From: Takakia lepidozioides
Lineage: Eukaryota > Plantae > Bryophyta
Length of the DNA: 64,000 nucleotides
Assembly (NCBI GenBank): GCA_030704615.1
Contig: CM060732.1
Location: forward strand, 45,322,001-45,386,000
Direction of reading: 5' to 3'
The notes under the pieces were generated by a model. It worked only from the letters and a program-made list of their open reading frames with translations. It had not been told where the DNA came from and searched no databases. The translations under genes and the position numbers were made by a program. Shown piece after piece: positions 22,217-58,475 of this stretch. Within the stretch, counting starts at the first letter, position 1; each line of letters opens with the position of its first letter.

Positions 22217-23575
22217 GTGCATACCCTGCAAGCATTGCGTGCCACGACACCACATCTTGTTCAGTCATATTGTTGAAAACTCCCTTCGCAGCCTTGGCGT
22301 GAATCCACTTTGGATAATGTGAGTGTGCACCTGCTTTCCAGCTTCCAGACCTTTCATCTTGATGCACTTAAGCAAGAGATAGACAACTGTATCTGAATAT
22401 GCTGAAATGCCTCCCACATTTGGCATACATGTACATATCGCATACATGTCAATCAGGGCAGTGTCCAGAATACAAATGCACACAAATGTGATGTGGTTGG
22501 GCTTCACCCCTTCCCCCATCATTTGATCATACGTTTCCAAGGCCCATCCCGCGCCCCTACTATGCATACCCTGCAAGCATCGCGTGCCACGACACCACAT
22601 CTCGTTCAGCCATATTGTTGAAAACTCCCACCGCATCCTTGGCGTGAATCCACTTTAGATAATATGAGTGTGCACCTGCTTTCCAGCTTCCAGCTTCACT
22701 TAAGCAAGAGACAGACAACCGTATCTGAATCTGCTGAAATGCCTCCCACATTTGGCATACATGTGCATTTCGCATACATGTCCAGCAGGGCAGTGTCCAT
22801 AATGACTTGTGGTACAATTCCAGCTTTGACGATGTCATCATGGACCTCTTTGCCCTTTTCCAGGGCTGCCAGGCTTGCACACGCATTACAAACGCATACA
22901 AACGTGATGTGGTGGCACTTCACCACTTCCACCATCATTTGCTCATAGGTCTCCAAGGCCTCCATCCCGCGCCCCTGCTGTACAGATCCTGCAAGCATCG
23001 CGTTCCACGACACCACATCTCGTTCAGCCATATTGTTGAACATTCCTACCGTATCCTCAATGCTCCCACATTTGGCATATATGTCCATGAGGGTATTGTT
23101 CAGAATCACATCTGGTACAATTCCAGATTTGGTGATGCAACCATGCACCTCTTTGCCCTTTTCCAGGGCTGCCAAACTTGCACACACACTGCAAACGCAC
23201 ACAAACGTGATGTGGTCGTGATGTGATCGGGCTTCACCCCTTCCACCATCATTTGCTCATAGGTCTCCAAAGCCTCCATCCCGCGCCCCTGATATGCATA
23301 CCCTGCAAGCATCGCGTTCCACGACACCACATCTCGTTCAGCCATAGTGCTGAACACTCCTTTCGCATCCTCAATGCTCCTACATTTGGCATACATGTCT
23401 ACCAGAGCAGTGTTCAGTGTTCCCTGGTCCTTCAGTTCATGCGTCCTTGCTGTGCATATCCTGCAATCATCGCACTCCACGACACCATATCTCGTTCAGC
23501 CAATACGCCCTCCATACATGTCGGCGAGGGTATTGTTCAGAATGACATTTGGTACAATTGCAGCTATGATAATGT
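22217..23575 (-). pseudogene. Inverted duplicate block of PLS-PPR repeats
   Basis: Same repeat units as 15.6-18.5 kb on the opposite strand, including the shared chimeric junction (YAKC..GGIS.DSDT.VCLLLKCIKMKGLEAGKQVH). Multiple frameshifts. Confidence 0.88.
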
Positions 23576-24539
23576 CGTCGTCCGGCCCTCTTGGATGAAT
23601 CTGTCCACCCACACACTATCCCTACTCCTTCAGGTATCCATGCCTCTCGACAAATCATACATACATCCTTGTCTTGCTGCTATCAGCTGCAAAGTCACTC
23701 CAAACTATCAAAGGTTCACTCAACCAGCTAACTTGCAGAATTCAACATGAAAATTTAGGGCCGATTGTGATAAGATGGAAAAACAGGGTGAAATGTGTTG
23801 AAGTGAATTTATCAATTGTACCGCTGCTGCTGCGGCTTTCAGTTGACCATCTACTCATGCAGGTTTCTTGTAGCTATCCTTCCACAGGGAATCATAAGTG
23901 ATCTGGAGCTTGAATTCCGCCCTCTTCGATGAATCTGGACCCACATCTCAGGGTCGAATCTGATGAGAGGGCAAAACAGGCTGAAATAGGCCGAAGAAGA
24001 AGGTGCTCTCACCACATTGTCCTTGACTTTGTTTCATGACCCATGGAGACCTGCTAGCAGCGGACACTGACCAACCCAATTCTGAATTGCATCTGCTTCT
24101 CTCTGTAGTCCAACAGGTATTCACCTTTTTGTCTCCATCGTCCCACCATTGACTAGGGTCAGAAAAGTGTTCATTCCAAAGCTTCTCCTCATCTTTGTTA
24201 TCTGTTTTCGGATATTTTCAATGCTGCCACAACGGCAATAACTTGTAAGGGCCGAGTCTGATGAGAGGGCAAAACAGGCTGAAATAGGTCGAAGAAGAAG
24301 GTGCCCTCACCACATTGTCCTTTGACCTTGTGTCACGAGTCATGACCCATGGAGGATCTGGCCGACCATCAACCCAAAATGACATGTGTGTGTGTTGTTT
24401 GTGTGTGTAGTCAGGTAATGTCGGATTGGTATGTGAGAACCACCACGATGTAGCATAATCTGTGAACGTCTCCATCTGCAAATCGCGATCAGCCTGTGAA
24501 ACCCCTCCTGCGGTTCAAGCAGATCAAGAAACGGGCAAT

Positions 24540-26123: not shown

Positions 26124-26127
<4 letters not shown>

Positions 26128-26172
26128 CTCCAAACCTACATAGCTGTAGGACGCTCTTGGATCGACACAATT

Positions 26173-29100: not shown

Positions 29101-32100
29101 CAAACGAGGGCGGTCTGAGTTCCAGTCCAGGGTTTCGGGCATGGTGAAGAATACTTTCTCCCCCCTTTTCAAAGCTAAGGTCGAAGCCGACATCAAATTG
29201 GAGTCACTATCTCTGGAAGAACATGTGAAAAAAGAGGAGTGCGCCCACATACTGAATCTGCGAAAGACGGTCGCAACCAGAGTTCCTGACCTTCCTACAC
29301 TCTTCGTCAAAAGTTGCTCACTGCATGAAACTTACGAACGTGAGAAAACAGCCACCGTCAGTTATGCAAAACAGGTAAATCTAAACAGTGCATCCATTTA
29401 CCTCCAATACACTGCAGGGAAACCAAAGATACGTTCTAGATATGTCCATCTGGATCGTAGTCTAACTCTGAACGCATTAACGTACATATTTGGTTGAATC
29501 ATGATCATAAATCAAAGTAAAAATTTGTTTAGACAAATCGGTCAGATCACCATCAAGACGTACTGATGATTACGTTTTCCCCAATTTAATGTAGATACTC
29601 AACTTGTTTCTGATAAAATTTGTCTCAGGTACTGGAGAAAGAGAACATGACATGGAATGCCATCGAGCTCGCTCCCTTGAAGAAAGATCTGGATTCGCTA
29701 TCTTCTACATCCAGTCATTCTGCAACGATCATCCCCACGTGCTCTGTACCTATGAAGTTGATTGATCTAGACACCACACAGGAGAGATTATCCAAAGTGT
29801 CCTATTTGAAATCTGGCGAAGTTCTCGTCCTTGTTCAGCAAATTGTCGGGGAGGCACTTCACAAACTTTACCTCAGCCCGAGGTTTGGAGTGGATCTTAG
29901 CACTGCAAATCCTATCAGGGTGTTCAAGAGGGGCACTGATCGACTAGCATTTGATGAGACGTGTAAATTAATAGCCCTCTATGACCGCTCCCTGGCCACT
30001 GTCAAAATTGGTCGGTTTGGCGAAAGATTCACTACTGTGGACTGGACCGGTGTCGAAGTGGCTTTGAACGACTGGGGGATCAACAGTGTCACGTGGATGG
30101 AATTTGTTCCTGGGAAGAGGGAGCTTGTCATAATTGATGATGCTCAGTGTGTTCGTCTGTTTGAAATGAGCCCGTCTGCTATGATGCGCCCACGGAATAT
30201 TAAGCTCAATCCATTTTTCAAGGCATGCATTTCCGTCGATGGAGCTTGCCTCATCGTTTTTCACAAAATTACAAAGCACTACGAGGTTGCAGACGAACCA
30301 CTGCCATCTGAAGAAGTTTCTGTGGAAATTCCGAGCTTAGACAGTACAGCTGGTAAGTTTTTCAACTTTCTATAGTTTCGGTCATGATGATTTAAGGCAC
30401 TTGATCTCACTTCATGCATGTAAATCTTGATCACCACGGTGGCTATGTAGTTTTTGGTGCAGCGGGACTGCGCGTGGGGTATTATCGTTGATGCGAATAG
30501 TGGACTGTCGATAGGAGGACGATAGCTCAATGTGGACTGTCGAATCTAGATATGTCACGTTGCTTCACCTGCACCCAATTGTGATGCATGAACGAGTGCA
30601 TTTAGTAACTGCATATTATCAAGTCCTTGATGTTTTGTGGACAGCAGGGGCAATCATTCGAGACTCGAACAATGAAGCTGGCAATTTGGCAGTTGAAGTT
30701 TACATGCTTGATGAGACGATGTCACATATGAAAAGCGTTGAGCTGGACGTGCTGATTACAGACACCGAAAGGTTGGTGGCAACAGTGGTGTGTTTTGGCC
30801 CACAAATGCATTTGGTAATCCATGACAGTACGAAACCAGAGGTTATTTGCTCCAGATTGTTGGAGATCAGCTCTGCATCTGAGGTTTGTGAATTGAAAGT
30901 ACTGAATAACAAATATCAGAAAGTGGAGGAGGTTGCAAGCTCATCCGAGAGGTTATGTATTGAGTTGGAGTACATTTACTACATCTTCGATAAGTACTCG
31001 GTGAGCCCTCCCTTACAAAGCAGTTTGTCTGAAACCGGTTGTACAAGACGGCAATTATCTTTTGAATTACTGTGGAAAGCTGGGCAGGTGCAGATGAATC
31101 TAAGTGCACAAACTGTCCACTATGTGAGTTCTCGAATGGAAAAACTCAAGCAAGAAAGAGGGAAAGATTTCTCTGGGCTAGAAATCATCTTCAATTCCCA
31201 GTCACTTGAAAGTTTCAGACTGTTGCCTGGGACATCAAGACAAATGCAGGTTGGAAGCTTCTCCAGCAGTAGTCACACTGCAGTGAAGGCCGGGGATTGG
31301 GTACAACGTCTGGTTTGCCTAGTGCCGATTCAGATTGCTCGGGCAGAAAACAATGGTTTGAAGCCTCTCGTGGATGGACTGCAGATTCCAGCTAACCTGA
31401 ATTATGCAGATGCTCTTTCTCTGGCGAATGTGATTAGATTTGGGTTTTACGATTCGGTCCTGGAAAGTTGGGTGGGGAGCATCAAAGTGGTTTCCTCTAT
31501 GGGGAAACAAAGCAGTGGTAAATCATATCTTCTCAACCACTTAAGTGGTTCTCTGCTCGATGTAGCTGGAGGTCGCTGCACCGATGGTGTGTGGATGACG
31601 ATGCGCACCACAAACGATTGCATGTATATTTTACTTGACTTTGAGGGCCTCGGAAGCTTTGAGCGCAGCGAGCAAGAGGATATGCTTCTTTCCATCCTTA
31701 ATGCAGCTGTCAGCAATATCACGATCTTTAACAAGAAGGTACGTTCCCAACCCCTTCACAGGCTTGATGGTCCAATTTTATGAACCTGCTTCGGACTAGC
31801 CACATGTTCTCTTCAAATCTCCAAATTTCACTAAACTAGTTGAAGATGCACCATAATATAGGTCAAACTTCGACTGCTCAATGTGTATATACCGTACAGC
31901 AGACCTGACCGTCGTCTTTCCTGAGCTTGCTTGACACTACAGACCTGTAATGAACATTCTGACTCTCAAATGGCGCTCGAGATCACTGAATGCATTGGAG
32001 AGACGAATTTAAGCCATCCAAGCTCATGGAAAACTAATTAGTGCCACCCCAGCTCGTACCAGCTCATTTCAGTTGCATGGGCCCATTCCATCCGTCGTAT

Positions 32101-35100
32101 GTACATACAGTTCCTCTTCCGATGAGGAGCGGGTGAGGAGGTGGCACATGATAGATGTGATTCTTGCAGGACTTCCATTTGGACAAAGAGACGGAGGCAG
32201 TATTCGAAAGATTTCAGAACGGAGTGAGTTTGGTGAAGGAAGATGAAAAGCTATTCAAGGGCCTCTTCTACATGGCCGTGAAAGACGTGGACGCTGCAGA
32301 TGTTGAGGATTTGAAACGGGAATTCCAGGACAAAATCTCTCTCATTTGCAGCAAATCTCAGGACAATTTTCTGACGAAAATGTATGGTGGAGAGGTTGAT
32401 ATTGCCGCCATGGCTCCCTTCAATCGCCCAGAGTTCTATGAAAGCATCATTGACATCGCCAGAACTGTTGAAGAGCTGGATACTTGCAACCACAATGGAC
32501 AGGGCTTCAGTAGAGACTTGAAGCTGGTGATAGCTCAGATTAGTGCCAAGGATTGGTCGCCAATCGACTCGAAGCGCGTTGCATTCAAGGTCAACTTGCT
32601 GAAAAAACATCTCAGTTCAGCTGTCACCTTTGGGCGCTCGAGAGTGGCAAACACCAAGATGCCATTGCTAAATTTCGACACCGACGAGAACATTAATGAA
32701 TCGGGTCATATGCAAGTAGACGGTTATGACTTTGACATGGTTGACACCAACATTCAATTGGCTCCTCATGAAAGCCAGGTAAATTAACTTTAAATAGAGT
32801 ACTGTAGGATTCTTACATGTGATCTGAGATCACTTTTCAAAACTGTACAAATATCTTGACCCAAATACAAACAAAATTAAGCTGCGGTGCTCTAGGATTA
32901 TAGGTCTTGCGGCGTCGCGGTGCTGAGGGAGACTCTTGCACATGCTTGGTAGCTTGCTGCATAGTTTCTGAAATATTTTGGGCTCTTCCAAGTTTGATCA
33001 GGTGATAGGAACCATTTTGGATCCGTTGGGGAAAGCGTTTCAGCGTGAGGTACCCCGCAAGGGAGAGAATGATGAAGCCTGGCACTCTTCATTTCAGAAC
33101 TTCCTGGCTGCTTTGGCAGACCGTCGCAAACACAGGTAAGGCACTCCACCCCCCACATCCTGAAGTTCCCCTCCCTCCCTGGGAATATCAAGAATCTGGA
33201 ATTTTTTCCAAAATTTCCAGTAGCTTGGCAGTCTACGCGTTAGACATATCTATGATCACATTTTCTTGAACTGCACCTGGGTCGTTCCCGAAATTATAAA
33301 CATCTCGTTGGTCTTAACTTGTTATCAGTTCAGAACTGATGTGAAAGGTCTGAAAGTTCTAGCTTACACTCAGCTGGCATGCATAAACGTTAAATTGAAT
33401 ATTGCAGGGTGCTTGAATGGCTAGAGGTCAACACTACAGACTTCTCAAATGATGGAGACGTGCAGAAACTAAAGCTGGAGGCTTTGGCGATGCTCGCAGA
33501 GCTTCCACATAAGCTGTCTCTATGTAGCTGCAAGTGCCAGCGGTGTTTTCTACGCTGCATCTTAGAGCGATACCATCCAGGCGATCATTCTTGCAAGGGT
33601 TCCCACATGTGCACGAAAAACTGTTCATACTGTCTTGATGACAGCAAGGCGGCCATAACAGGAGACCACTTGAGTAGGTGTAGCGATTCCGCAGGACACG
33701 AGGGTTCTCACGATTGTCAGCAGAAGTCCCATACCTGTGGGGAAGTTTGCAGCTTGCAAGGACAATCCTCAAACTGCAACAAAGCGTGCATTCTGAAACC
33801 AAGACATAGTGGAGACCACAAGTGCAATTCCCGTCAACACATGTGTAAGATGGAGTGCTCTCTCCCTACCTGCAGAAACACCTGTGTGTCTCCTGTGGAA
33901 CTGGGAAACCACAGCCTGCATGCTTGCCACGAGAAACTGTGTCCCGAAAAGTGCACAATGAAAGGATGCAACCGCAAATGCGCATCGGAAGATCATTTTC
34001 ACGCGAAGAAACCAGGTGTGGTTCACCATTACTGTGGAAGCGAGCACCCCTGCTACCAGCAGTGTGAAGCCCCTGGCGTGTGCGAGGTTTTGACTGAGGT
34101 TGTTAGGAAAACGAGCACATTTCAAGGCAAACGGGCAAACTTTGAATACGAGCATGTTTCTGAGCAGAATGGAGTGAGGAAGGACTGCTGCATTGCTATC
34201 CCACCTTTCCAGGTATTCTCATTATCTTGTCCACACATGTACTGGATATATGTGCCGGGCAAGTTTGCTGTATTATCCGCTTCTTGTGGACCCTTTTTCC
34301 ATGTATCGATGTGCATAGTACTGAACGGTTGTCCTTTGCAATACCATTCGACAGGAGCAGCATCAAGGTCCCCATTCACACACCACAAACACAAACGCGG
34401 TGCACTTCTGCGAGATAAGTTGTGAAGCTTGTGGCTACTTCTGCAATCTTCCCATCAATCACAACGGACTGCACAACACCACTCATGGGAATATGAGGGA
34501 TGTGAGCTTTGTGTCCGAGGTTGAAGATTTTGATATTTTGGACCGGAAGTACACATGGGGAGAGTCTGGGATGGCAGAAATGTGTATGATGCATTGTAAG
34601 GCCCAGGGCCGCGGACATATCCATCTAATCCCTTGTCCCGAACACAACCACGGGGGAGCATGCTTCGGCAAGCTCGTCGAAGGTAAAACTTGTTTAAATT
34701 CAATTTCAGACCAGAGTCTTTACTTGTTACAGCAATGCTTGCTAGCACTTCTTTAATGCACTTGTCCTCCACTGGTAGGATCAAAGCAGAAAATACTTCG
34801 ATGACCTCTAGATCCTGGAACTGAAGAGGGATATAAAACACTCTTTAGCCCCGAGTTCAATGTGCACGCCTAAAACGTAGACTGAAGACCTAGAAACCTC
34901 TGCAGCGATTAGATGATCATTAGGACATTACTGGATCTAAGTTAACTCATTCTGTTGTACAGGTTCAAGGCATGAGATTCGCAAGTATGGGCCCAATTTT
35001 GATGCACCAAAAGATGAGCTTACCCATGCTGCTTTCTGGAAACAGATGCGCTTCAAAGATCCTTGCAGTGACGATGAGCAGCGGCAGTTTTCCCTTTGCA

Positions 35101-35912
35101 ATCATCACTGCCCATCTGACGAACACATTATGATAGACAGTTCATCTGGCTCCTCTCAGCAGATCTCATACTGCACAGAGAGCCTCTGGCACGCAGCAGT
35201 TCCTAGAACAACGTCACAAACCTCTGGAGTGGCCGGTTATGTCACAGAGGATGGCCATCGCTTTTGCTGCAATCATTCTAAGAATGTGGCGAACCATGTG
35301 ATATTTGTCATTGACCGATCAGGTTCCATGGGAGATAAGGATTGTAAACCGTCGATGGTGAAATTTTCGCAACCCCGTACAAACAATCGGCTTGGATGCG
35401 TCTACGAGGCTATCCTGCGTTTCATACGCACACGCCTTAGTAGTTCGAGTCTTCAGGACCTCGTCTCTGTTGTTCTGTTTTCTTGTACTGCTCTGGTAGT
35501 AATTGAGGGCCAAGAGATGAAAGAGAATCTTGTCGACCTTCTTCTTTGCTACAATTGCGATGGTGGGACAAATTACTCTGCTGGCATGAGAAATGCAGAG
35601 CGAATTCTCAGTAATCGGTCCAATCTCGATGCAACCTCTCAGACGAAAAGTCCTGTTATCATCTTTCTGAGTGATGGTGGTAACAATGGCGGAGAGGATC
35701 CCGTGTTCGTTGTCAGAGCGATGAAACAGGTGGAGCCTAAGCTTATCCTCCACACAATTAAGTTTGGATCTGATCCATATAACCAAATCTTAATGGACAT
35801 GGCAAAAGCCGGAGATGGGACGTTCCAAGTTAGCCTTGATGAAGTTGAACTGGCGAAGAGCTTCGAATGTCTGGCAAAAAGTTGCAGGCCGAAGGTGGCG
35901 TCTCTCATGTAA
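26173..35912 (+). CDS. Giant (~2,480 aa) protein: unknown N-terminal region, GBP/atlastin/VLIG-like GTPase, Cys/His-rich (NF-X1-like) zinc repeats, C-terminal vWA; 9 exons
   Basis: Exons 26173-27843, 28244-29374, 29629-30352, 30645-31738, 32170-32778, 33002-33135, 33408-34212, 34355-34682 and 34963-35912. All introns are GT-AG, phases match, and the joined frame has no stops. Motifs: G1 MGKQSSGKS, G2 RCTDGVWM, G3 LLDFEGL, G4-like VKD; many CxxxC..H..H repeats; vWA MIDAS DRSGS..GGTNY..LSDG. Confidence 0.9.
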
Positions 35913-37047: not shown

Positions 37048-37473
37048 TTACGCTTCTACATTTAGCATGGCTGTCTGCAGAATGATATCTGCCCCAATTC
37101 CAGCTTTGATGATGTCAGCATGTACCTCTGTGCCCTTTTCAAGAGCTTGGAGGCTCCCATACGCACGAAGAACGCAGACAAATGTCACCTTGTTTGGGGT
37201 GAGCCCTTGGTGTTTCATTTGCTCAGAGAGGCCAAAAGCTTCCCTAAGACTCCCATACTTTGCATATCCTGCCATCATTGCACTGCATGAGACCACATTG
37301 CGATCAGGCATTTTGTCAAACCCTTGACGTGCATCCTTCAAGCCCCCACATTTGGCATACATGTCCACAAGGGTGTTGAGTAGAAAGATGTTTGGCTGAA
37401 ATCCACTTTGAATAATGTGGGCATGAACCTGTCTACCCTCTGCTAGGTCTCTCTTGTTGATGTACTCCTGCAA
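37048..37473 (-). pseudogene. Isolated PLS-PPR fragment
   Basis: GRQVHAHIIQSGFQPNIFLLNTLVDMYAKCG..MPDRNVVS..PNKVTFVCVL; about 3-4 repeats only. Confidence 0.8.
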
Positions 37474-38019
37474 GACAAAAACATAATTATTATAGTGTGC
37501 CCAATCGCCTCCTTGGTTTACTGATGCTTTGGGTCTACTGGCCCTCCCTTAGCAGGTTGTATCCAGTGTCAACTTGTGTGTCTGAATTCAACAACACTTT
37601 ACGCCCCTGTTACAACAGCAGGCAGTTGAAATAACTCATTGACGAACCTTCCAGTGTGAGATAACATGGAAATCTAGCCAAATCCTTGAACAAAAGGGCA
37701 GAGATCTTAGGTGATCAGTCAGCTACTAACCTGAGATAAGAGGAATTATATAGCCCACAGCCTGCACGCCAAGCATCCCAAGCGAGATGTAGGGCGTCGA
37801 CTCCGGATGGCGCTTGAGGTAGGGTTGCCACACTGAACGACCCTTCCAGACTCTTCCGAGAAATGATCTCATCCCGCTGTCGCGGTGAAGGACAACTCAA
37901 CCCAATTACTTTAGTTCTAGAATGTATGAAAACACCAGCAGCCCAAAGCAGAGTAGATGACAAATTCTCACTCGCTCTTCAAATAGCAGGTACAAATGGT
38001 ACATATAGAGAAGTAGACA

Positions 38020-43959: not shown

Positions 43960-46900
43960 TTTTTTCATCTTTTTTTTTCTGTTTTTGTTTTTTTTTTTGG
44001 GGGGGGGAACAGGGAACGGTGCCCTGTAGTCGAATTTTATTGAGATTATTAAAGGGAAAAAAATTAAAACCCTTGGTTGGCCTTTGGCCGCCTTTAGGCT
44101 TGTCTCACGATAAACGTGACGGATATCCCAAAGAGCAATACGATTAGCTAAGCTAAACAAGTGAATCTTGGCTCTGTGATTTGAGTGAGAGTAATACGAT
44201 TAGCTGAGCTAAAGAAGTGTAGTTTGGCTCTGTGAGGAGACTTAGAGCAATGACATCAACAAGAGTGACACAACCTAGAGATGTCTCGTAGGTCAGATAC
44301 ACATTAGACTACGAGGCATGAAGCTACGAGTCTAAATGATCGAGGGGTAAGAATACACCGGATAAACTGAATAAGAGCCTATAGATTCAATATGGTAGAG
44401 CTGTGTTGTGGAATTTAGGTGCGGTAGTCCAGCTTGGTCTTCGTGGTTGCCCTCACATGCTTCCAGTTGATGTCCGTTTTGTCAAACTCTGGGGAAGCGG
44501 AAGAGGAGGGTTCGGTGTCCCCTCCATTGAGGGGGGATTTGCCGAGGCCAGTCACAAGAGTCAGGTTCTGGCTTCCTGGTAATGCCTGCACAGACTTTTT
44601 TCCATGCCAACTTAGCTACTACAGTGAGTTCAAAGAAGATCCTTGTAAGCACAGCAGATACAGTTGAGTTAAGATGTCGCATAGACCATGAGCTTCTAGC
44701 TTTCCATAATTGCCATAGAGCGACTCCTCTCAGGGTTTCCTTTTTGAACAAGAGTGAAATGACTCCCTGGGACATTGAAGGAGGCATCTGGCCCTGGGCT
44801 TTAATTGCATTAGCCATAGCAGCATGCCATCGATGCCAGGTGCTTTGCTATTGTTCATCTTGTTTAGTGCATCTTGAAGCTCCATACCCGTGAAGTCCTC
44901 CCCTAGATAATGGAATTCTTCTGGTCGAAGTTTGTGGGGCACTAGCAATTTGGAATGGTGCAAGGGGTCTTTGGTGTCTTCCTGGAAGAGTTTCTGAAAG
45001 TGGGAGAATGCAAGACTACACCTAGCCCTAGGATTCGAGGTGGAGTGACCCTGGTTGTCCGAGTAAAGTTCCTGTATCCTTTGAAGAGATCTGCGTAGTT
45101 TGACTTTCTCAAAGAAATACTTGGACATTTTCTCGCCTTTGGCCAACCAATTTATTCCCGCCTGCATTTGCATTTTTTGTTCTTGAAGGATCTGATAGGA
45201 TTCAAATTCTTGGCGTGCTTCAAGGTAAGTATGGAGTGTATGCTCATCACAGGAGGCGGTTTCAATCTTTTTTTGGCAGACTCCTAGACATTTCTTGAGA
45301 GCTTGAACCTTTCTTTTTTGTTTGATCGAAATTTGTCTACTCATATTCTGGCTTTCTTTGCTAGCTGCCAGCAGCTTAGCTTGAAATCGTTGGATTGGGC
45401 ATTGAATCCAGTTTCCGTTTTGAGACCATGCATTCTTTAGCCCCTGCTTGAAGGACTGAAGTTTAACGTGGCTGGAGTTGAGCCTGTAAATGCCCCTACC
45501 TTTCTTTCTTACGTTTGGCATAGAGACTATGCCAGAAACACAGGCATGGTCAAAACCTTGCGCTATTGGTTCTTGGGGATTAATGGAGGTCCCGTTCGAG
45601 ATATCCAGGGTGACATAAATGCGATCTAGCCTAGCCATGCAGATGTCTTGGAGGGAGCGGTTGTTCGTCCACGTGAAGGCAGGGTGAAGCCCCCCATGGT
45701 GGGCTGGTGGATGATCGATCTCGGTGAAACTATGTGTTTGAAGCAATTCCTCCCAATGTCCTTGTTCTTCTTGAGTGAGCTGGCTGGAACCTGATCCTAT
45801 TCTGTCAGTTTCGTTCTCAACCATATTGAAATCCCCTGCCATCACCCAAGTTCAAAGAGTAGTAGGATGGGTTCCGATCTTTTGATTTAGTAGTTGCCAG
45901 AAGGATGAGCGTTCTGTTGCTGTGTTGGGAGCGTAGATGTTAATGAACCCTATGGCTTCAGGGGCGTTTGGGAGCTTTAGAGAGCAAAATTGGATCCTGC
46001 TTGGCATCCACAATTCTTCAGCTAAAAGGAAGGGTTTGAGAGATGGAGAGAGAAGTATTGCCGTGCCCCCCTTCGAACCTTCGTATGAGGGTTCCCAGAA
46101 GGCAGCGTCTGAGGGCCAGAGCTGATCCGACAGGCTGGCGATTTTCCTATTATCGAGTTTGTGTTCTTGGAGAAACACTATTGCCTCCGTTTGCATCAAA
46201 GGGGCTAGCCAGGTTTGGCATTTTCCCTTGGAGCAGATTAGTCTCGTCTATGAGTGCCAAAATCTGTGTGGAAGGGCTGAGTGTCGGGCTAAGATCCGGA
46301 TATTGCTCTATGTATGATCCCCATGTGATAGAGGTGGTGGGCTGAAGTGTGTATCTTGCAAAGAAGGATCCCAGAAATATTTGAATCTTGTAGGTAAGCG
46401 TGTTTATGGGAGAACCACCATCCGGGTGAGTTGCTATGATGTTGTGGGTATCAGTCGTGGTAAGCCAGAGTGACTCCATACCTACTCCTTGTGAAGCCAG
46501 TGTAGCCAATAGTGTAGGGGATGGCATCCTTTTGAATATGATCGGGGTGATGCAGGTGGCTTTGGGATCCTCCAATGGTAACGCATGTGAATAATCCCTC
46601 AGAGTTAGCCGGGGAAAGGTTTGAATGTGGGAGCATAATTTGGCAATGTTTGGGTTAAGGGCGACTGTGACTCTGGGTGGGGTAGATGCACCCTGCGGCG
46701 GCGGGAGCTGACTCCTTAAAGCGAGCTGGGGTGGGGGAGGCTGGTGTATGCTGGAAGGGCCTGCTTCAGAGGGTGGCTATGGGAGCGCCTATTGGGGGAT
46801 TGATGAAGTCGTCTGGTACTGAGAGGATTTGGCTAATGGGCCCGCCTCCAGAAGCATTGGATCCATGTAGTCTTTTCTTTTTGTGTGCACCGGGGAAATG

Positions 46901-48680
46901 GAGCGTTGAAGAGAAGAGTCCCAATAAGGTGGAGGCATCTGTAGGGGCTGATTGCTGCGGGCGGGCATAGGGGAGAAAGACTGAGTGTGACCTGTGAGGT
47001 TGAGAGCATGGTGATCCTGGGCCGAACCTGTTCGAGCGTTTGGGGCCCCCACAGAAAAAGCTGCTCTCTTCCTTTTGGATTTAAGACAGTCTATCCTCCT
47101 GTGTTCAGTATGTCCACAGATGTAGCATGCAGTCGCTGAAGTATCCTCTGTGACTTTCACTGAGAAGAAATTTCCTTCTTCATCAATTGGTGATCTAATA
47201 AATTCTGGGAGACTGTCTTCCACCGGCATTGCCACCACAATTTTGGGAAAGCCAGAATCATTTATTTTGGAAACGATTGTGGTGTGTTTCCAAGCCGGGT
47301 TTTCCTTGAGCTTCTTAGTGCACATTTGGGGATCAAAGACTGACTGCAGCCTAAGTAAACCCCAAAGCGATTGCCAATGTCGGGGAGAAAAAACAGGTAC
47401 TGGTCTGGGATGTATGGTATTGCAATAATTCTAGGGGCCCATACTTTGCCATTTCTATTCCCCAACGCAGGCGACCAAGGGAAAATATTCACATTGAAGC
47501 CTTGAAGGTGAGGATTGAAGGAAAGCACCTTCTCAGCAGCCTCTTGTGAATGAAGTACTATAGAGAAGAAACATTTCCCCCTGGATTGACAGAAATGTTG
47601 AGTGAGATCCCCAGTGCCCCCAAGGTGTGCAATCGCCTAGTCTCTGACGTCGTCCTTGGGAACCTTCCTACCTGGGAAATGTAAGAGTACCCCGCGACCT
47701 TGAATGTCTGACATCGTTCCCCTGAGGTGAGACACATCTAGCTTGACTGTAGATGTGTTCTTACTCATTGTGAGTTGTATCTTGGAGATGTCATCAATAT
47801 TCTCCGATCGAGGGCTTTCATGTATCCCCGTAGGCAAATTGTCCAAGGGTTGGGCATCGTCGTTGCTCGTGGAGTGTAGAGGGTTGGGCATCGTCGTTGC
47901 TCGTGGAGTGTAGAGGTTGTTGAGCAGCTGCAACCTGGGGAGAGCAGAAAGCCGAGGACTAGGTGCGCGTGAGCAATTGATGTGCCAAGAAGAACCTCGT
48001 GCTAGACAAAGGTTGGGGACGGACAATCGTGGGGATCCTGGATAGAGGGTGATGGGTTCTGTTGGAGGAGTTGCCCCTGTGGGGCTTGAAGCCGGAGGGG
48101 CCCATGAGATAGGAGGGATGAGCTGAACATAGAAGATCGAAGTAGAGGAGCGAGAAAGGGCTAATAGAGAGAGATTCTCTTAACTAGCTGACGCGAAAGT
48201 AGGATGAGTAAGCTGGAAAGGATGCAATAGTGGGAAAGATCAGCAGGTGAAGGGGAGAATTGAAGGATGACTAGATGAAATAGTAAGCAGTTAAAAGGTT
48301 GTAGCAAGAGGAGCTGGGAGGTGAGAGCAAGCGAGGCACAATAGCATGAGAGGAAAAGAACTCCGTTGTCGAAGAGTTCATGTCAGCTGGTGGAATGAAT
48401 GGAGACGCCCTGGGGTATAGATCTTGGCGGCTGGAGTTAATTAGATGTAGAATCATGAAATCATGAGATTGTGATTGCAGAAGAGGTCGGGGAGGGATGC
48501 AGGGATGCCTTCGTCGTGCATGGGAGGTTGATTGGTACTAGAGTTATGAGAAACTAGATTTCGTTGTCTCCAGGTAAAGGTGATGATGGTTTCAGGTGTG
48601 GGGCGGAGGTCAGGTTACGAGGTTGGGGGTGCAAGGATTGGGAGGCGGCAAGGAGAGGTTCGGTTAAGGAAACTGTGAAA
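43960..48680 (-). mobile_element. L1-type LINE, degenerate, with most of the RT deleted
   Basis: ORF1 pieces with zinc knuckle CYICGHTEHRRIDC. ORF2 APE endonuclease motifs FLQEHK, INIYAPN, AGDFN, FTW, ARLDRIY and DH. Pre-RT KAPGIDG..GVISLLFKK is joined directly to C-terminal ALWQLWKAR. A-rich tail at ~43960-44000. Confidence 0.9.
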
Positions 48681-48685
48681 ATGGA

Positions 48686-48873
48686 TGTGCTGTCGTGCGC
48701 ATACATATCGCTACACAACTACATCGCTGTCCAAAACCACACAACACATGTGCACGCCACACACTAGTATATCACTAGTCCACCACTAGTCCAGCCTCCA
48801 ACCACTAGGCTACAACTAGTCAGTCACTAGGCTGCCACTATGCTGCCCACTATGGCAGTCACTAGTCCACACA
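48686..48873 (-). repeat. Putative 3' LTR of the Gypsy element, with polypurine tract at ~48874-48886
   Basis: TG...CA bounded segment. On the minus strand a G-rich tract immediately precedes TGTG. The 5' LTR is not in the window. Confidence 0.45.
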
Positions 48874-51329
48874 ATCGCCCCCCTAGCTGGTGCTTAGGTC
48901 CCTCTAAGTCCAGGTAGCCACAAGATGTGATAGTGACCATAGCCTCACTAAGTCCTCCACCACTATCCCTACTACACTAAAACTCGATAGATCAAGAGGC
49001 CGGGTGCAAGAGTTGCCCCATCGTTAGTCGCCGTCTTGCAACCTGTGAACTTGGGCTTGGGATCTCATGTATTGACTCCTATGAGCTTGGCCTCCCATGT
49101 CTTGTTAGCTGCCTCCAGTCATGTCCACTGCCACTATCCCAAGCAGTGTGGACACAACCAATCTCCGTCAGGAACCTTCTCAAGAGGTGGTGTCAAGCAT
49201 CCCATATGCCAACCCCTTGAGCATTGATCACACACCAGCATGGTGGCTGCCCCTTTGGCAGACCCACAGAACATGCACCTCAAACCTGCAAGTACCACTG
49301 CCAAGTTTGGGTCAACTCTGCCATCGACATTGGGAAGGTGACATGACGCACAATTACGCACATGGTCCTTCCAAGTCATGCCATCCCGACCCTCCAAGAT
49401 CAGGACCCCTGAGGGCAACACCTCTCGAACCCTCAGAATAACACGTCCTGCAGTAACATCCAGAGTCGTAGGAGCAGTCTGCTGCAAATAAACATAGTCA
49501 TTAGGGCTAAACCTCCGAACCCCAGGATGATATCCTCCACCACGTATAGTGGCATACCTCAACGTATCACGGTGCTGTGCAATGGCAAGGTTCTCAAAAG
49601 CCATGGACATGACTTTCTTGAACAACTCTGCATGCTGATCACATGCACATACCCACACGTCCGGATCGTCAAGGTTAAGGACTTGAGCAGTGTCCCTACA
49701 AATGGCTGCATGCAAATCCGGCTCTCGGCCAAAGAGAAGGAAATATGGTGAGAAGGAGGCAAGTGATGCTTGTTTGCTGAACCTGTAGCCCATGGCTAAC
49801 CAAGGAACCTGAAGATCCCAATCTCCTAGGTGCCATTTCTACAAGCCATACTTGCGCAAACCCCTCTTCACCGTCTGAACAACTCTCGCTGCCAAGCCAT
49901 CGGCCTCAGGATGATCCCGAGAAGTGGTGCGGTGGTCTATCAAGGCTTTATCACACAAAGCCTGAAACTCCCCCAAGAACTCTCTCCCTTGGTCCATGAG
50001 TACCTCAGCTGGAGCACCAAATCGGCTAAGCACACGATCCAAGAATGCATACGCAGCCCCCTCACTAGCCTTGTCAGGCAATGGAACCAACTCAATCCAC
50101 TTGGAGAAGTGCTCCACCATCACCAACACATATCTGTGGTGGCGCATAGTCAGTGGCAGCGGTCCTGCGAAGTCAAGACTTCCACCTGTAGCCCAACCCA
50201 TGATTGGTAAATGATGCAATTGTGGTGTAGGGGCGTTGAATAAAGCACGCACCCTGTCACACACCATGCACCTAGCCACGAACTGTTGCACCTCTGTGTG
50301 CATATCACGCCACCAATACTGCCCCTGCAGTAAACTATGAGTGCGTCGCACTCCAAAATACCCCAACTCCTCATGGGCTTGCCGCACTAACCGTGCACAT
50401 TGTGTTGGGTGAGGCACGATCCTCACTCGACCATCCTCCCACACTCGAAGCAGGTGTATCCCCTCCCACTTGAACCTCTTGGCTCGTTGTAGGATCCGAT
50501 CCTCTCCTTGGCAGTCACACTAGCTGTCGTGTCTCCAGTGCGGAGGTAGTCCAACACAACCGAATCCTCATGTATATCTCTGGCACCACTTGGCTCATCA
50601 CTAGCCTCAGGGTCCTCAGACACTCCGTCTATAGTCATCCCTGTTGTAGATCCAACCTGACCTCCCGATGCCAAGATATACAAAAAGACAGATGCATGCC
50701 ATCCCGACACCATCTCCTCATCCGTCTCACCATGCCACCGAGCTCCAGTGTCATCTTGCTGGCTTGTGCATGGATTGCGACTCAATCCATCCGCATCCCT
50801 ATTGACCAAACCCAGTCGATGCACAACTTGAACATGTCTCTCATGCTCTTCCACCGTAGCACGAGAGGCAAAGCAATTCCTGTAAGCCTCAGGAACCGCT
50901 GTATACGTCGTCTCTCTCCTCTAGTGACAATAGGTCCAATGTCAGGCTCCCAATTGCCCTTTGTAACTGCAACCTTAAGTCCAATAGACTTAGAGGTAGA
51001 GGACGCGTCCCGTGGTTGCTATGCCGCAACCTCTTGAGCAGTACTCCCTGCCTGCTCAGTCAATGACAATGCCTCATCCTGCCCCATCATCTCATCCTTG
51101 AGGACCTCCTCAACCCGAGAAGAATCCCCAACCTCATCCATCACAGCCGCCTTGGCTGCCAACTCCCTCTGAACCTCGAGCACCTCACACATGTGCCATG
51201 GATGTCTACACATTGTGGTCCTCATCGGCTCGCCCCCACTCACTGCCTGTACCGTCTCGGTAGGCAAAGAGACCGTCAAAGGAAGCGCACTCCGCACTCT
51301 TTGTTGCTCAGCCATAGCCAAGCTGATAA

Positions 51330-52275
51330 TCCAGGTCAAGCAATTTAGATCCATTGCTTGCCCCAACACCTGACGACGTGATGCCTCAGAAAGAGAAGGC
51401 ACCGCCGTGGGTCCCAGTGGAAAAAACCCATAGCCCGCTCTCGCTCGTCGGCATTAGGCTCCACTAATTGCTGCAACTGAGCATCCCACAGGAGGCCAGG
51501 TCCATTATCTCGGAAAGCATGCGATCCTGGGAAGCTGAGCAGTGTAGGTAGTGTTGCTCGTGGTTGACCCACCTTGTTGACCACTGCCAAAGGCGAATGG
51601 TCATCATGTCTCACACGCTGAGACTGCCTCCCTGTGTCCAAAATGCTACCCACTGTGAGGTGTGCTGGCCGCTGCACCCCATCAAATGCACGCTTAAGCA
51701 GTGCGGGTGACATCAAGTTAGTCCACCATAACCGTGGACGATGAGCCCGTGACCCCACTGCAGCTGCATCCAGCAACACTACTGACCCAAAGCCATGACC
51801 GGACTTGATACACACTGGCCATCACCCTGGCCCGAGAATCGCCCATCAGTGGCACATTCTCCAAGATGTATGCTGGAGATATAGCCTGATGAAGCTGTAA
51901 GTGGCGCAAAACCCGCACCATCTCCCAAAATAGACCCGACCTCGAGTCTCGCAATCCATTGTCATGCCCGGCTGATGAATACCCTTGGCAGGGCTAACCT
52001 GCCACTACCAAATCAATGAAGCCAACCCGCTCCAAATCCTGCGCCCCCAGCAAAGAGATGTCTGCTGGCATGGCCTGCTGATATCCACGAACCGCAGACA
52101 CCGGCAACAACTCAGGGTACTGCTGCACCAACTGAGCAATATGACGGAGTGAGATGCGTCATGCAGTCTCATCCCTCTCCACATACAGGTAACGCCGAAC
52201 TCGAACACTTGCCTGTAACACAGCAGTCAATCTGGTGCTGATCCCGCCAAACAAGTCCAGAAGACAAATGCCTTC
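51330..52275 (-). pseudogene. C5-cytosine DNA methyltransferase domain within the Gypsy polyprotein
   Basis: Manual translation gives motif I LLDLFGGI, II YVERD, III ADI, IV VVAG*PCQGYSSAG, V RSGLF, VI YILENVP, VIII AHRPRLWWTN and IX/X ERERAMGF..RRQVLGQAMD. Two point stops and frameshifts. Confidence 0.9.
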
Positions 52276-53884
52276 ATCCGGTGTCCAATAGGTGTGGTGT
52301 CCAATGGAGACAACTAAGGTGGTCCTGGTGCAATCCCCGCACTCTCCTCCTCTCCTGATGGTATAAAAGCCTCCACCCAGGCTTGTTGCACCTGTCGATC
52401 AGCATCCCGCTGCAAATCCTTGCTCGTGCCCCACAATGGAGTCTGAGCAACCATGGTAGGCAACTTCGCCATACCATACATGTCATCCTGCTCTCCCGGA
52501 GGTAGCACATCCTCTGAATGAGCGTTGCCCTCAAGCAACTCTCCAGGCCAACTCACTGCCGCTGTGAATGCTGCTAGTGTCGGCATCTTGCCTCGCTGGA
52601 TAACCGCAACTCCTCTTATGAACGTCATAGGGAGCTGCACACGCCGGTCCTCCCCTGACTGCCATCCAGGCCTGTAGGAAGCTGACTCCTCCCAAAAATC
52701 CAGGATGAAGCCCATGGGGTACAACATTGCCCCACCAACAAGGACATCGTACGAGACCGCGTCTGTCACAATGGCTTTGGCTCTCATCACTGAGCCATCT
52801 GTAGGATGATCCGGCTGTAGTCTAATAGCCAATTCACGCCGTGTCATGCCCCGAGCCCAGGGATGCCTCGGCGTGAGCCTGGTCACGTGAGCGCGTGAGC
52901 GCAACTGCGCTCACGCCACGTCACCTTGCGCAAATGCCACGTCACGGGGCTCAGTCCACGTCATCACACGTGAAGGCCGAGTCACCACGCACCCAGAAAG
53001 AAGTGGAGTGTATTCCCGCGGATTGGCACCCTTTACCGCGGAAACAAGCTGGACGACATAATAAAAGGCATTGAATAAAGGATGGATGAATGTACAGTTG
53101 GATGATAAACAGATGGATGAGTGTGAAAAATGTATGTAGATGGATGAATGACGGATGGATAAGAGTAAAATGGATGAATGTATAATGGATGTTGAGCAAT
53201 GACAAAAATTCATGACAGGAAGATGCATGACCAAATCTTTTGACGAATGCACAAAGTATATGAAATGAGTGTGGAAGGTTTGTGGGGTGGATTAAAGAGT
53301 ACAGAGGATGAATGTACAATGGATGTTGTACAAAGGAAGCTTTCATGAATGGAGCACGCATGAATACAGTGTAGATGAATGCACAATGGATATGAGAAGA
53401 GTCAGGAAGGTTTGTGAGATGGATTCATACATATAGCAATTTAAACGAAAGTTGATTCTGTGATTATTATTTGTTCTAAAGGAACAACTACGGTAGAGGA
53501 AGGGGATTCAACGTTTTCCAGATAATATGAAAATGAATATTAAAAGAATACAGTTCAGTCTGACTCAGAGTCAGTACAATGTATCCCCTCTTCCTCTGCA
53601 TCTAAGTCTAAGTATTTTAGAACACCGGATCCACGCTGGATACACCTACGGCTGGCCACTAAAAAGTCAGGGGATAGGGACTCGGCCGCGTGAAGTGCCA
53701 TTGCTTCGGCATAAACAGGGAGCAGAAAATTGGAAAGGGGGCTGTCGAAAACAGACTCGCCAGAAATGACTGTATCTCCTGAAGATCCACCGCTGGCTTT
53801 CCTGAAAGACAGCCTGAAAAAGTTATTACTGTAACTTTGATGTTATCGAGAAATTGAGTATGACTCCCAAAGAGGGTTTAGCAC

Positions 53885-56800
53885 TTACTCACATGAAAAG
53901 TCGTTGTCGACCTGCTTATCTTCGGGATCGTCATCATTTCGAATTTGAATCCGATCAGTCTGTGTGCCTGAAGTGGAGCCAGACAAAAGGGGGAGGAGCA
54001 CTGTGTTGTAGAGGTCAGAATCACCCTCCATGCCAAAAAGGCTTCTTCCGCCTGCCTTGCATGCGTGGTAAGTTGCTCCTGCACCAGACAGGAGAACATG
54101 AACAGTTTGGAGGGGGGGATTTAAGCAGATGAAACTGTTGAAAGGAAACCAATTCGGAAGGGAAAAAACGAACCTGTGGACACAGAAAGATCGACCACCC
54201 GTGCAGAGCGGTGGCTGCATGACTCCAGCAGTATTTGCATGAATGCTGGTGACTTTTCCTTTGCACCTCTCCAGGGAGTGCCATCTGGTCTCTTCAGAGT
54301 CTGACTGGACTGCATGAAGTTGTACAAAATGTCATCGACATGGGGCTCATAGGGGGGGTTGACGAAACAACCCTGGTCAGAAATCTCAAAGCTGCGGATG
54401 GAGGATGGTGTCTTTGATGTGCGAATCCTCCGCAGGCAGATCGCCTCGAACATCCTCGTCTGCCAAAGATAGCAGGTTAGTGTGGTAAACACAATCTATA
54501 GTGGAAGTGTGTACATCGGCTATTCAGAACTCTGACACAAAAAAATCATGAATCGTTGATGATCGGTGTCGATCATAAAACATTCTACTAGAGTGGAGCT
54601 GCAGAGAAAATTGAAACTCATGATCAAAGCACAAGCAGAAGGGAGACGGCATACCAGCTGACCAGGGAAACCCCCTTTCACAAGGTAGAGGCTGTTCACA
54701 CAATTCCATGTGCGCAAAACTTCAAACCCTGAAGACTTGAGGTATGATGCCAATGCCCGACGACTATCATTGTCACATGACTGAAAAAGCAGAAGTGTCC
54801 CTGCATCAGAGAGGAAATTGTTACAGAACCCGAACACCCAACTCCAGTAGTTGTCCTCGAATTTGTTCCAGCCTGGCGTCTTGCCCTTTGGAAGAACTTC
54901 TGGCACAGCCTGGCCATCCGGGATGTCGAGAATGACAATGTCGGCCGCATAAGTTTTCTGCACACCGCACACGAAGGTGGGACCTGTGCTCACCTGCAAC
55001 AGACATGTTTTTTATAAGAACGATGGCAAGAATGTTTTCAAAGAACGAGACTGAAATACTGCCAACGAAACTTTCAGAGAAAAAGGAAAGAAACTGGAAT
55101 TCTCACCAGATTGAGGAATGAGATTATATTGTCCCAGGTAGGGGATGGCACCCCAGTGTATCCTCTCTTTCGACTCTGCATCATCGAAAGCCAACCCTCA
55201 TTAACAATTTTCATCTCTCCTGCTGAATCAGAACGGGAAGGGTGTGGCTTGGCATCGAACACGCACTGAAGAGTGCGGGTATATCTTCCAGCAGTAAAGT
55301 CCTGCCCACTCTCCATCTCCTTTTCATTCTCCTTCCCCTTGTCCTTTTCCTTCTCTTTGGACTTGTCTTTGTCCTTTGGCTTTGCTGGTGAGATGGCTAT
55401 GACATCAACAGCCTTGTCTTTTGGTTTGCGGCCCGCCTTCTTTCCCTTCTGCGGCGTTCCCTGAGCATCAGGCTCCTTGGCAGCCAAGGTTGCTATGTTT
55501 CGTTGATACTCTTCGTCAGTCAAAGGCGCCAGCATCTCAGCGTTATTGTTCAAGTATTTCATATGCTGTTCTTGAAAGGTCGTGTGCTCAGGTGGGCAGT
55601 CAAGGTACCACCCACAGTCTCTGAAGTGAGAAGGACTCCAGTCCTCCCTGCAGTATACATGGTTGGATCGTTTGCAGGGGGTCCGACCACATGTCAGATA
55701 GTCAGGATTCCCGCTCAGGTGATTTCCTTCCATACAGCACATATTTCGTGTACCTGAAAAAATACAAAAGCGCTCAGTGAGTAAGATGCAAGTAGAACAG
55801 AAAGAATAAAACATGATTGAAATGGCTCTGACAACTGCTCCAAGGACCTTTCAGGACCACACTACTGCTCCAGATATGAATGTCGTCAACGCCATTCAGA
55901 ACATTCCATTCATGACACTGTAAATACATCCTAATCCAGGTGAATGCAAATATCGATTACGACATTCAAGAATGAAGCCAAATTAATACTTAAATGAAGC
56001 AAAATCACAGGATGGAAATAAAAAATTGAGTAAGGAACCATCCAGGAAAACTCAATGCACATTCATAACGAACCTATCACTGAGGACCTCACAACATCAC
56101 TGTATGTGAATGGCGTCAACGCCATTCACAAAAATACCAAAAAAGAAACCAATTACTTAGCTCCCCAATCCATGTAAATTGAATTTGTCGCTTTGAATAA
56201 TACAGACACAGCTGTGAATGTCGTCAACGACATTCACTTTGGATTTCTTAAAACAGAGCTTATCAAGCCTCCACATTCATCGCAAGAGGAAAAAAACAAT
56301 GCAGAACAACTGAATGTCTGCATTGACATTCAGCAAAATGAAGTGAGGAACCCTCACTGTAACCTCTATGGACATTACAAAAATTTAAATAACCTGAGGA
56401 CCTCTCAACAACTCCGTATGTGAATGTCGTCAACGCCATTCAAATATTGCACCCTTAGATCCTAACCAGGTGAATTCATATACTCGCTTAAGAATGACTT
56501 AGACAAAGAAGTGAATTGTCGTCAACGACATTCAATTGGATCTAAGATTGCAATCCATATGAAGCCACATTTTTTCCCAAAAAAACAGTAGAGTTTCAAG
56601 TATGACATTGCACCTGTACACTAACTCGCATTCATGGCCCACTCTCCTCCAACCTGACTGTCAAAAGTCGTTGACGTAAAATGTTACCATCTTTGAGAAC
56701 TCCCGAAAAAACAGTATCTCCCAGGTGAGACCTCTCCACTTCCTTATGTATGTCTCCAATGACATTTGGGGAGAGGAAACATCGCAATGTTCAGGTCCTT

Positions 56801-58475
56801 CAAAGTCCTGATCCAGCACAATGGACGGCGCGCTTTTCGACTGCTGCAAATAGTATATTTGTCAGAATTGCAAAAAAGATATACACATCACATACTTGAA
56901 GAGAAGAAACAGCATGTTCGAATACACACCTGACTCCAAAATGTAGCCTTGTGGAAGCCAATTATTATCAAACACCAAATCACTGATTCCTTCCACCTTT
57001 GTGCCAGGCTGTATGGTGCTCTTTGGGAACTGATTCAAGTCCTTTCCTGTTTGATCTGAGTTCCATATCTCCAGCCACCTTATTTTTTGTTTGTGGTTCG
57101 ACCACCATCGATATGGCAGCCGGTGCAATTTCTCCCTGCTTGCCTCTCCGATGCACATGCTTGTCATAGTGTGTTTTATCTGCTGAAGGAACTCAGGACC
57201 AAGTCAGGATCTCCTATTTCTAAGCTGCGTTCCGAAGGCTGACATCAATTTGGTTCTTCGCATTCTCAAACTCCTTCTTATTGCAGCTTCCACACCCTTT
57301 GATGTCCTTAGTTCCTCTGGTGTAGTGCGGTAATATTCGATTTCCCTTCTCAGCTGCCTCTGCCAGTTCTTGCTGCATTCATTCCAGTAGTGATTAGCTC
57401 CGAAGGGACTCTAAACATGTATTCGAAAAGTAAACAGATTACAGACTCGGGCTTACCGCATACATGTACTCCAGAACGCCTCGTGTCAAAGAATACCAAA
57501 GTGCCCTGCGCTCTTCCTGTTTCGCACTTCTTGATGATAATTGGGTGGTAGTACTGTCCGAAAATCATTCCAGCTTCATCAGACCAATCCTCTGAATTCG
57601 GAATAAGTGTGTGAACCAATCTTGTTTGTCACATCTGCGATTTCTCTGTCGATCTGCAAAAACATTGGAAACATTGCATTCCTTAACACTGTTTTTGGAG
57701 GATTAACAAGACACTACAGAGGGAATCAAATCTCCTGGAATGACTTACTTGTTTGTTCACGTCGTGCCATAGCTGTTAAGAAGCCTAGCGATGTCGTTTC
57801 CTGGATCCAAAACCATTGCCTCACAGCAACATGCTTGTCTTTGTCTTTCGAATGGTGTTTCTGAATGTATCCATCCATGCCAAGCAATCGGTGGTTGCCG
57901 TCCCAGACGTAGAACATGTGGGTTGCAGAATTGCTGGGTGTTCTTTCCCATCATGAGGCCCAGCTCGAACTCCTCATTGGCATCTTTCCAGCACTCATCC
58001 CAGTTATCACTGATCTCTGGAGAAACTAATGTGCTTTTCCCATTTATATCCGTCAGTGACACATAAAAAACTTGTGCACCAAGTCTATATCCATGCACAA
58101 AATCACTCTCCAATTTTGTTATGTCATGGGAAAGAGGTGGACGCACAACAGGCATTGATATCATCCGGCACAGAATAACCTCCTGAGAGTTTACCTTCTG
58201 GAATGACATGAGTTCTTTCACCTTGTCAAGGTAGTTGCACTTCGGATTCATCTGCTTCATCTGTATTCTCTGAGCACGAGCATGTCCCTTATAACCTCCT
58301 GAGAGTTTACCTTCTGGCATGACATGAGTTCTTTCACCTTGTCAAGGTAGTGCACTTCGGATTCATCTGCTTCATCTGTATTCTCTGAGCTTTTTGCGGA
58401 CTCGTCCCCATCTCCAGATCCTTTCCCCTCTGATCCTGTAGGCTTCGACCTCACAGTTTTCTGGCACGATGCCAT
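53885..58475 (-). pseudogene. Multi-exon cargo gene: ParB/Srx-like domain, PHD-like finger, Lys-rich linker, beta-class N6A/N4C DNA methyltransferase (frameshifted copy)
   Basis: VRPPL..FYVS..FYVWDGNHRL (ParB-like). CCM..CGRTPC..HVYC..W..CPPEH (PHD-like). MTase exons 54993-54655, ~54459-54174 and 54078-53885 splice in frame: ADIVILDIPDG..FLSDAGTLLLF..GFEVLRTW..GAKEKSPAFMQILLE..VVDLSVSTG|ATYHACKAGGRSLFGMEGD. A possible further 5' exon lies at ~59000-59195. Confidence 0.75.

Follow-up and report, generated by a model that had tools for sequence, protein, structure and literature searches.

Features of the locus

The 64,000-nt stretch of Takakia lepidozioides DNA analyzed here, referred to as the window, carries on its minus strand the remnant of a Ty3/Gypsy retrotransposon that includes a DNMT3-type C5 cytosine methyltransferase (DNMT) domain (Table 1). 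This copy is dead and partly deleted. It is broken off at ~52857, with Gag and the catalytic half of the protease missing; a contig of the same species runs on into more protease sequence at this point, and the corresponding region of the relative P0174 is Pfam gag-asp_proteas. At the internal deletion, the contig of run X12, a run that may be RNA but was given no weight as a sign of expression, holds 1281 additional letters, and loose ends occur at both places in runs X5 and X6. Neither a reverse transcriptase (RT) core nor Gag was found anywhere in the 64,000-nt window. The first-pass annotation, which placed the methyltransferase between protease and RT, was accurate for the family but not for this copy, which has half a protease and no RT core. 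At the 3' end, depth drops and loose ends cluster at 48689 in three sequencing runs. No long direct repeat and no segment A (see below) were found in the window, where the copy keeps only segment B, so that its target duplication is unreadable.

TABLE 1 Features of the retrotransposon copy in the window
Feature	Position	Strand	Evidence or remark
Protease C-terminal half (retropepsin) and linker	52287..52857 (protease match, 52857-52630)	-	tblastn with P0008/P0002, 42-46% identity
DNMT3-type C5 cytosine methyltransferase domain	51315..52284	-	Canonical motif order; 2 stops and 2 frameshifts
Conserved in-frame TAG, then CAA CCA	51019..51021	-	Ends Gag-protease-DNMT frame; predicted readthrough site
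Remnant of RT-region N terminus, ~50 codons after the Gag-frame stop	50866..51018	-	Matches sequence before RT in P0010
Deletion junction, ~1.28 kb lost (RT core and most of RNase H)	50832..50866	.	2173-nt contig of run X12
RNase H tail and linker	50500..50845	-	tblastn with P0010/P0027
Integrase, HHCC zinc finger and DDE core, one stop at 49841-49839	49660..50500	-	PF17921, E 1.1e-13; PF00665, E 1.3e-12
C-terminal PHD finger and end of Pol	49134..49290	-	PF00628, E 3.8e-11
Polypurine tract, common to related loci	48875..48888	-	blastn of window 3' end versus loci, 83-92% over 52 nt
Terminal segment B, ends CACGACA; element 3' end	48691..48873	-	End motif as in segment B of related loci

Next to the truncated 5' end lies another repeat of high depth (52858 to 53430), with short units of the GGATGAATG type. 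Beyond it lies a broken, apparently intron-containing gene (54100 to 58400, minus strand) with the motif WDGNHR, which we take to be ParB-like, then DIVILDIPD and EKSPAF...VVDLSVSTG, presumably the motif order of a beta-class amino (N4C/N6A) methyltransferase. It had no Pfam or PDB match, and its Atlas neighbors are Rossmann methyltransferase clusters at 0.85 to 0.89, a lead only. This gene may be part of the repeat by which the Gypsy element is interrupted at 52857.

Elsewhere in the window, a gene for a TPM-domain thylakoid lumen protein (2606 to 4039, minus strand) has its closest counterpart in Physcomitrium (88% identity), ahead of Diphasiastrum (85%), Ceratopteris (79%), and Marchantia (78%). 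In a tree, it falls among mosses with a support of 81/88 only, pointing to a land plant host that is probably a moss. A large gene on the plus strand (26125 to 35909), as judged by eye, encodes a GTPase-like P-loop (VSSMGKQSSGKS) together with repeats rich in Cys and His, and its C-terminal domain resembles von Willebrand A. Degenerate PLS-type PPR repeat arrays occur on both strands (9250 to 10600, 15650 to 18550, 22200 to 23750, and 37050 to 37550), and a decayed LINE (44730 to 47640, minus strand) retains ORF1 with a zinc knuckle, an endonuclease, and the start of an RT. A small repeated element in which the first ~90 nt recur ~300 to 440 nt further on (X-Y-X) is present at 12211 to 12731, 14450 to 14650, and 23943 to 24454.

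The methyltransferase domain

In a six-frame reading of 48600 to 53100, the motifs follow one another on the minus strand: FGG (motif I) at 52251 to 52243, PCQ at 51993 to 51985, ENV at 51861 to 51853, RxR at 51740 to 51732, motif IX at ~51446 to 51423, and motif X at ~51380 to 51355. The first piece of the domain alone matches PF00145 (DNA_methylase) with 52.7 bits (E, 5.6e-14; cut-off, 22; stops entered as X). Motif order and profile match confirm the C5 methyltransferase where the first-pass annotation had seen it, and the match of the stop-masked translation, on which that annotation had made its claim depend, is clear. Both of the point stops that it described are present (52161 to 52159 and 51996 to 51994), with, in addition, frameshifts within the domain at ~51790 and ~51421 and a third directly upstream at ~52283. 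The stops are private to the window copy (96% and 99.9% of the summed depth in run X1 differ), as are the two frameshifts within the domain. End-to-end alignment with stop-free relatives leaves no room for an intron. The domain is intronless and collinear with the polyprotein, as had been proposed, but a conserved in-frame stop at 51021 to 51019 separates it from Pol. Of 25 positions at which the window copy differs from the family majority, 18 are of the C-to-T type, which indicates an old, decaying insertion.

Among solved structures, relative P0003 is closest to DNMT3A (E, 6e-12), compared with 1e-8 for DRM and 3.5e-4 for M.HaeIII. An AlphaFold model of P0003 from a 57-row alignment (pLDDT, 93; pTM, 0.91), which replaced a poor 14-row run (pLDDT, 48.5), matched DNMT3A/B in Foldseek (DNMT3A E, 3e-19), with the fold of DNA-bound DNMT3A. 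On sequence and on the predicted fold of this relative, both nearest to DNMT3A/B, and on its linear motif order, the domain is assigned to the DNMT3 class. DRM was rejected; the circularly permuted motifs are absent, and motif I precedes IV, VI, VIII, IX, and X. A search of viral contigs returned only seven distant phage-type methyltransferases (24 to 53% over short stretches).

In alignment A3, the catalytic Cys is present in 56/56 sequences, the ENV Glu in 55/57, and the two RxR Arg residues in 53/57 and 55/57. These residues and the S-adenosylmethionine (SAM)-binding glycines are near invariant over 57 sequences, down to ~31% identity.

A repeated family in bryophytes

A protein search returned 34 clusters 49 to 76% identical to the query, including 16 from Marchantia polymorpha, three from Calypogeia fissa, and one from Sphagnum troendelagicum. 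Relatives in these three genera are 65 to 76% identical, and in some M. polymorpha proteins the Gag-protease-DNMT frame seems to be whole. Ferns, lycophytes, and seed plants had no named protein among the 34 clusters, in a search limited to longer proteins. These named liverwort and moss proteins, together with the plant genes in the window, bear out the earlier suggestion that the lineage persists in a land plant. A metagenome scan yielded 80 loci, or 62 distinct loci once duplicates were removed. RT lies downstream of the DNMT in 34 of 38 informative distinct loci and protease/Gag upstream in 44 of 47, giving the family order Gag-PR-DNMT-stop-RT-RNase H-integrase-PHD. The loci were retrieved via the DNMT, and the rate at which the family loses the domain is therefore not readable from them.

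The order PR-RT-RNase H-integrase in these loci is that of Ty3/Gypsy elements (RT being absent from the window copy), and the best match of relative P0168 is Ty3 Gag-Pol (E, 2e-91). The first-pass annotation had allowed for a one-off insertion, and other copies carry the DNMT at the same position. Capture of a host DNMT3 gene, or a chance insertion, in the window copy alone has next to no probability: nothing was found in its favor, dozens of loci, along with named proteins of liverworts, mosses, and algae, have the domain in the same place, introns are absent, and the DNMT and integrase trees (below) divide two domain orders alike. This explanation was ruled out by the position shared across loci.

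In run X1, 47,797 contig pieces fall on the window element. Summed contig depth is 0.3 to 1.4 million over the element versus 216 to 281 in the two flank bins. This sum is a sign of repeats only and not a copy number; the family is highly repeated in its host. pN/pS between the window copy and nine closer loci is 0.27 to 0.32 for the DNMT and 0.19 to 0.30 for integrase (rough ratios, as dS is near saturation); it is 0.50 for a tenth, distant locus. Within-family values of 0.4 to 0.9 mostly reflect postinsertion decay and were left out of the estimate of constraint. The ratios indicate purifying selection on the DNMT, with a constraint similar to that on integrase.

Decay has affected nearly all of the copies sampled. 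This, with the C-to-T differences of the window copy, would fit an enzyme that restrains its own element, such that self-silencing slows copy gain and benefits the host rather than evading it, an idea raised in PMC5890265. Host enzymes alone would, however, produce C-to-T decay, and so repeated a family is not what restraint predicts; we consider this role very improbable. The CpG observed/expected ratio of the element (0.51) is close to that of the window (0.54) and thus provides no footprint of self-methylation.

A conserved stop between DNMT and RT

In 34 of 39 distinct loci, the frame is closed 17 codons ahead of the RT query start by TAG or TAA, with CAA-C next to it, and the window copy has TAG CAA CCA at the same position (51021). 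The context CAR-YYA makes a stop leaky, as in tobacco mosaic virus. Against readthrough, this context is complete in just two of 39 loci and in the window copy, most loci having CAA-CCC, and the stop is TAA in 12 of the 39. Annotated Marchantia and Calypogeia proteins terminate at the matching place, which, with the conservation of the stop, makes the DNMT the last domain of the Gag frame. Translation of RT-RNase H-integrase-PHD likely needs readthrough of this stop. With the DNMT in the Gag frame and Pol produced by readthrough, Gag-like amounts of enzyme are expected. The stop is not universal, since it is missing from P0168 and P0319, distant relatives in which the frame is open from the protease to the integrase.

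Such stoichiometry would also fit a structural protein, and the domain could have been kept for a noncatalytic or non-DNA role, such as cDNA or RNA binding, particle scaffolding, or RNA methylation. The Klebsormidium domain produced no methylation in yeast, a result termed inconclusive by its authors (PMC5890265). The near invariance of catalytic and SAM-binding residues over 57 sequences and the match of the P0003 model to DNA-bound DNMT3A argue against such a role, which we regard as doubtful.

Terminal repeats and insertion

The anatomy of the terminal repeats was read from related loci and, in the host species, from loose ends only. In related loci, the 5' end is formed by segment A (340 nt), and segment B (112 nt) comes after the polypurine tract. 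What follows B is segment A in five loci and flanking sequence in 10. The layout is A...B-A-B in L042 and L060 and B-A-B in L010 and L052. Seven complete elements are bounded by 4-bp target duplications, exact in six and matching at three of four positions in the seventh. Inserted copies are thus A...B or A...B-A-B between 4-bp duplications rather than elements with canonical two-LTR ends. At the B|A junction, three loci show the palindrome GACA-GC-TGTC, and in two the spacer is AT; the A|B junction has two extra bases, GT or AT, of which GT is the pair found between the tract and B. In the host species, loose ends in three runs lead from B into a TGTCA start.

Split repeats bounded by 4-bp duplications imply that integrase cuts inside the LTR. 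Recombination between the B segments of A...B-A-B elements could also be a source of A...B copies. No tyrosine recombinase family was detected in 24 relatives (E, 1e-5), and the window has an rve match. A DIRS/Ngaro identity was rejected, as a DDE integrase takes the place of the tyrosine recombinase. Integrase is followed by a PHD finger only and not by the chromodomain of chromoviruses.

No tRNA-type primer site was seen in these loci. In nine of 16 copies, the sequence after the 5' A contains at least 10 nt complementary to a site ~30 nt below a TATA-like box, compared with 7 of 3,200 shuffled controls.

A proposed role for the methyltransferase

On balance, it is probable that this highly repeated bryophyte Ty3/Gypsy family, with its first frame encoding Gag-protease-DNMT3, uses the enzyme to methylate its own new DNA in the particle before insertion. 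The leaky stop would supply the DNMT in Gag-like amounts, with RT and integrase made by readthrough only, and the protease would release the DNMT inside the particle, where it would act on newly made element DNA. Reverse transcription may self-prime from the RNA's own 5' end, as in Tf1, giving cDNA with B-A as its LTR. Integrase would then cut the palindromic B|A junction (GACA-GC-TGTC) within the LTR, so that one-LTR circles or doubly cut linear DNA could give A...B insertions and two-LTR circles A...B-A-B insertions. Only the latter would retain terminal redundancy and hence the ability to copy again. Premethylated copies would resemble host heterochromatin on arrival. De novo CG methylation was demonstrated for dinoflagellate retrotransposon DNMT3s, and cDNA methylation was proposed as a role for retrotransposon DNMT3 (both PMC5890265).

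The enzyme might instead act mainly after integration or in trans, entering the nucleus either alone or together with the integrase and its PHD finger and methylating the insertion site or other host chromatin. Expression at Gag levels would provide far more enzyme than one cDNA requires. Furthermore, the integrase PHD finger lacks the aromatic residue carried by H3K4me3-reading PHD fingers, and PHD plus DNMT resembles the animal DNMT3s, in which an ADD domain is paired with the catalytic domain. In chlorophycean relatives, the DNMT directly precedes integrase. In the bryophyte clade, however, DNMT and PHD are in the products of different frames unless readthrough occurs, and the K. nitens methylome is ordinary and plant-like despite such elements (PMC5890265). 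We judge an action in trans to be rather unlikely and favor methylation within the particle.

Relatives in green algae

Among 1.84 billion representatives, a profile search found 435 matches at an E value of 1e-30 or better, partly via profile columns outside the DNMT. Among 31 proteins looked up, the named hosts were Closterium (five proteins), Mesostigma, Klebsormidium, Hariotina, and Scenedesmus. Streptophyte proteins have the order protease-DNMT(-RT), and chlorophycean proteins have RT-RNase H-DNMT-integrase-PHD. The two orders form separate groups on both trees, with a support of 99 for the DNMT and 88 for integrase; the trees were built from selected subsets of 58 and 30 rows, respectively, with midpoint roots and host DNMT3 rows absent. 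One side of each tree consists of P0327, P0245, and related proteins (Hariotina and Scenedesmus), whose DNMT lies between RNase H and integrase. K. nitens P0250 lies across weak branches (59) of the DNMT tree, which is without host DNMT3 rows.

Within bryophytes, the DNMT tree departs from host phylogeny, with Marchantia nearer the L004 type than the window copy is, which may reflect either old parallel sublineages or horizontal transfer. Given relatives in Klebsormidium, Mesostigma, Closterium, and chlorophycean algae, the published acquisition in Klebsormidium alone looks too narrow. As a tentative extension, less probable than methylation in the particle itself, a Gypsy lineage spanning the green plants may have kept an active DNMT3 since before the colonization of land; in bryophytes, the element would load the particle at capsid stoichiometry, methylate its circular cDNA, and insert the circle through a cut at a palindrome inside the LTR, and the CpG of that palindrome could place integration under the control of the element's own methylation.

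Significance and comparison with known systems

DNA methylase-encoding transposons were stated in 2019 to be absent from land plants such as tracheophytes (PMC6338049), and KnitGypsy-Dnmt3 of Klebsormidium nitens was described as having been acquired in the lineage of that alga (de Mendoza et al. 2018, PMC5890265). In contrast to these statements, as worded in the accessible portions of both papers, the family is common among bryophytes, and its relatives extend across the green algae. A 2026 preprint lists "streptophytes (Gypsy-DNMT3)" and, in the portion available, does not name land plants. No report of the family in land plants was found in openly readable text, a scope beyond which lie figures, closed supplements, and subscription bryophyte genome papers; the accessible text of PMC12344493, PMC10952607, PMC6453930, PMC11982613, PMC3350952, and two preprints has no mention of a bryophyte family. 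Relative to this readable literature, the land plant and green-wide range, the position of the enzyme in the Gag frame, and the integration anatomy are new.

With 16 of the 34 clusters coming from Marchantia polymorpha, some of them keeping a seemingly complete frame, the role of a transposon-borne silencing enzyme is testable in a genetic model. The DNMT genes of these elements are also uncounted candidate de novo methyltransferases for work on bryophyte methylomes, and their repeat anatomy offers an explanation for the unexplained DIRS-like ends of these Gypsy elements.

Ngaro and PAT are split-direct-repeat tyrosine recombinase elements with an A...B-A-B layout and a likely circular intermediate. 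The present family shares the layout and, probably, the circular intermediate but differs in its DDE integrase and 4-bp target duplications.

The precedents cited by the first-pass annotation, in dinoflagellates and Klebsormidium, are as published (PMC5890265). According to the available text of that paper, KnitGypsy-Dnmt3 has an intronless, nonpermuted DNMT3 in a Gypsy polyprotein, a DIRS-type repeat layout, and purifying selection, all as here; that text is silent on a stop after the DNMT, 4-bp duplications, an internal cut, and self-priming. The K. nitens protein GAQ93235.1 (P0250), which we infer to belong to that element, shares the Gag-protease-DNMT order, at 34% identity to the window piece. 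The present family differs from KnitGypsy-Dnmt3 in its land plant host and in being highly repeated. SymbioDIRS-Dnmt3 of Symbiodinium is likewise a retrotransposon-borne DNMT3 and methylates CG de novo in yeast, but it belongs to a tyrosine recombinase DIRS element and is an independent acquisition (PMC5890265), unlike the DNMT described here, which accompanies a DDE integrase.

Moss Tcn1/Tf1-type chromoviruses are Gypsy elements that, as described in the text available, have no tRNA primer site and are predicted to self-prime (PMC6317226), as is this family. The family is set apart from them by features rather than by an RT tree: a PHD finger in place of the chromodomain, the DNMT, and the permuted LTR. 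With the DNMT3 and DRM enzymes of host plants, as covered in the accessible text of PMC6453930, it has in common a DNMT3-class catalytic domain, which is here intronless and embedded in a mobile element and, unlike that of DRM, is unpermuted.
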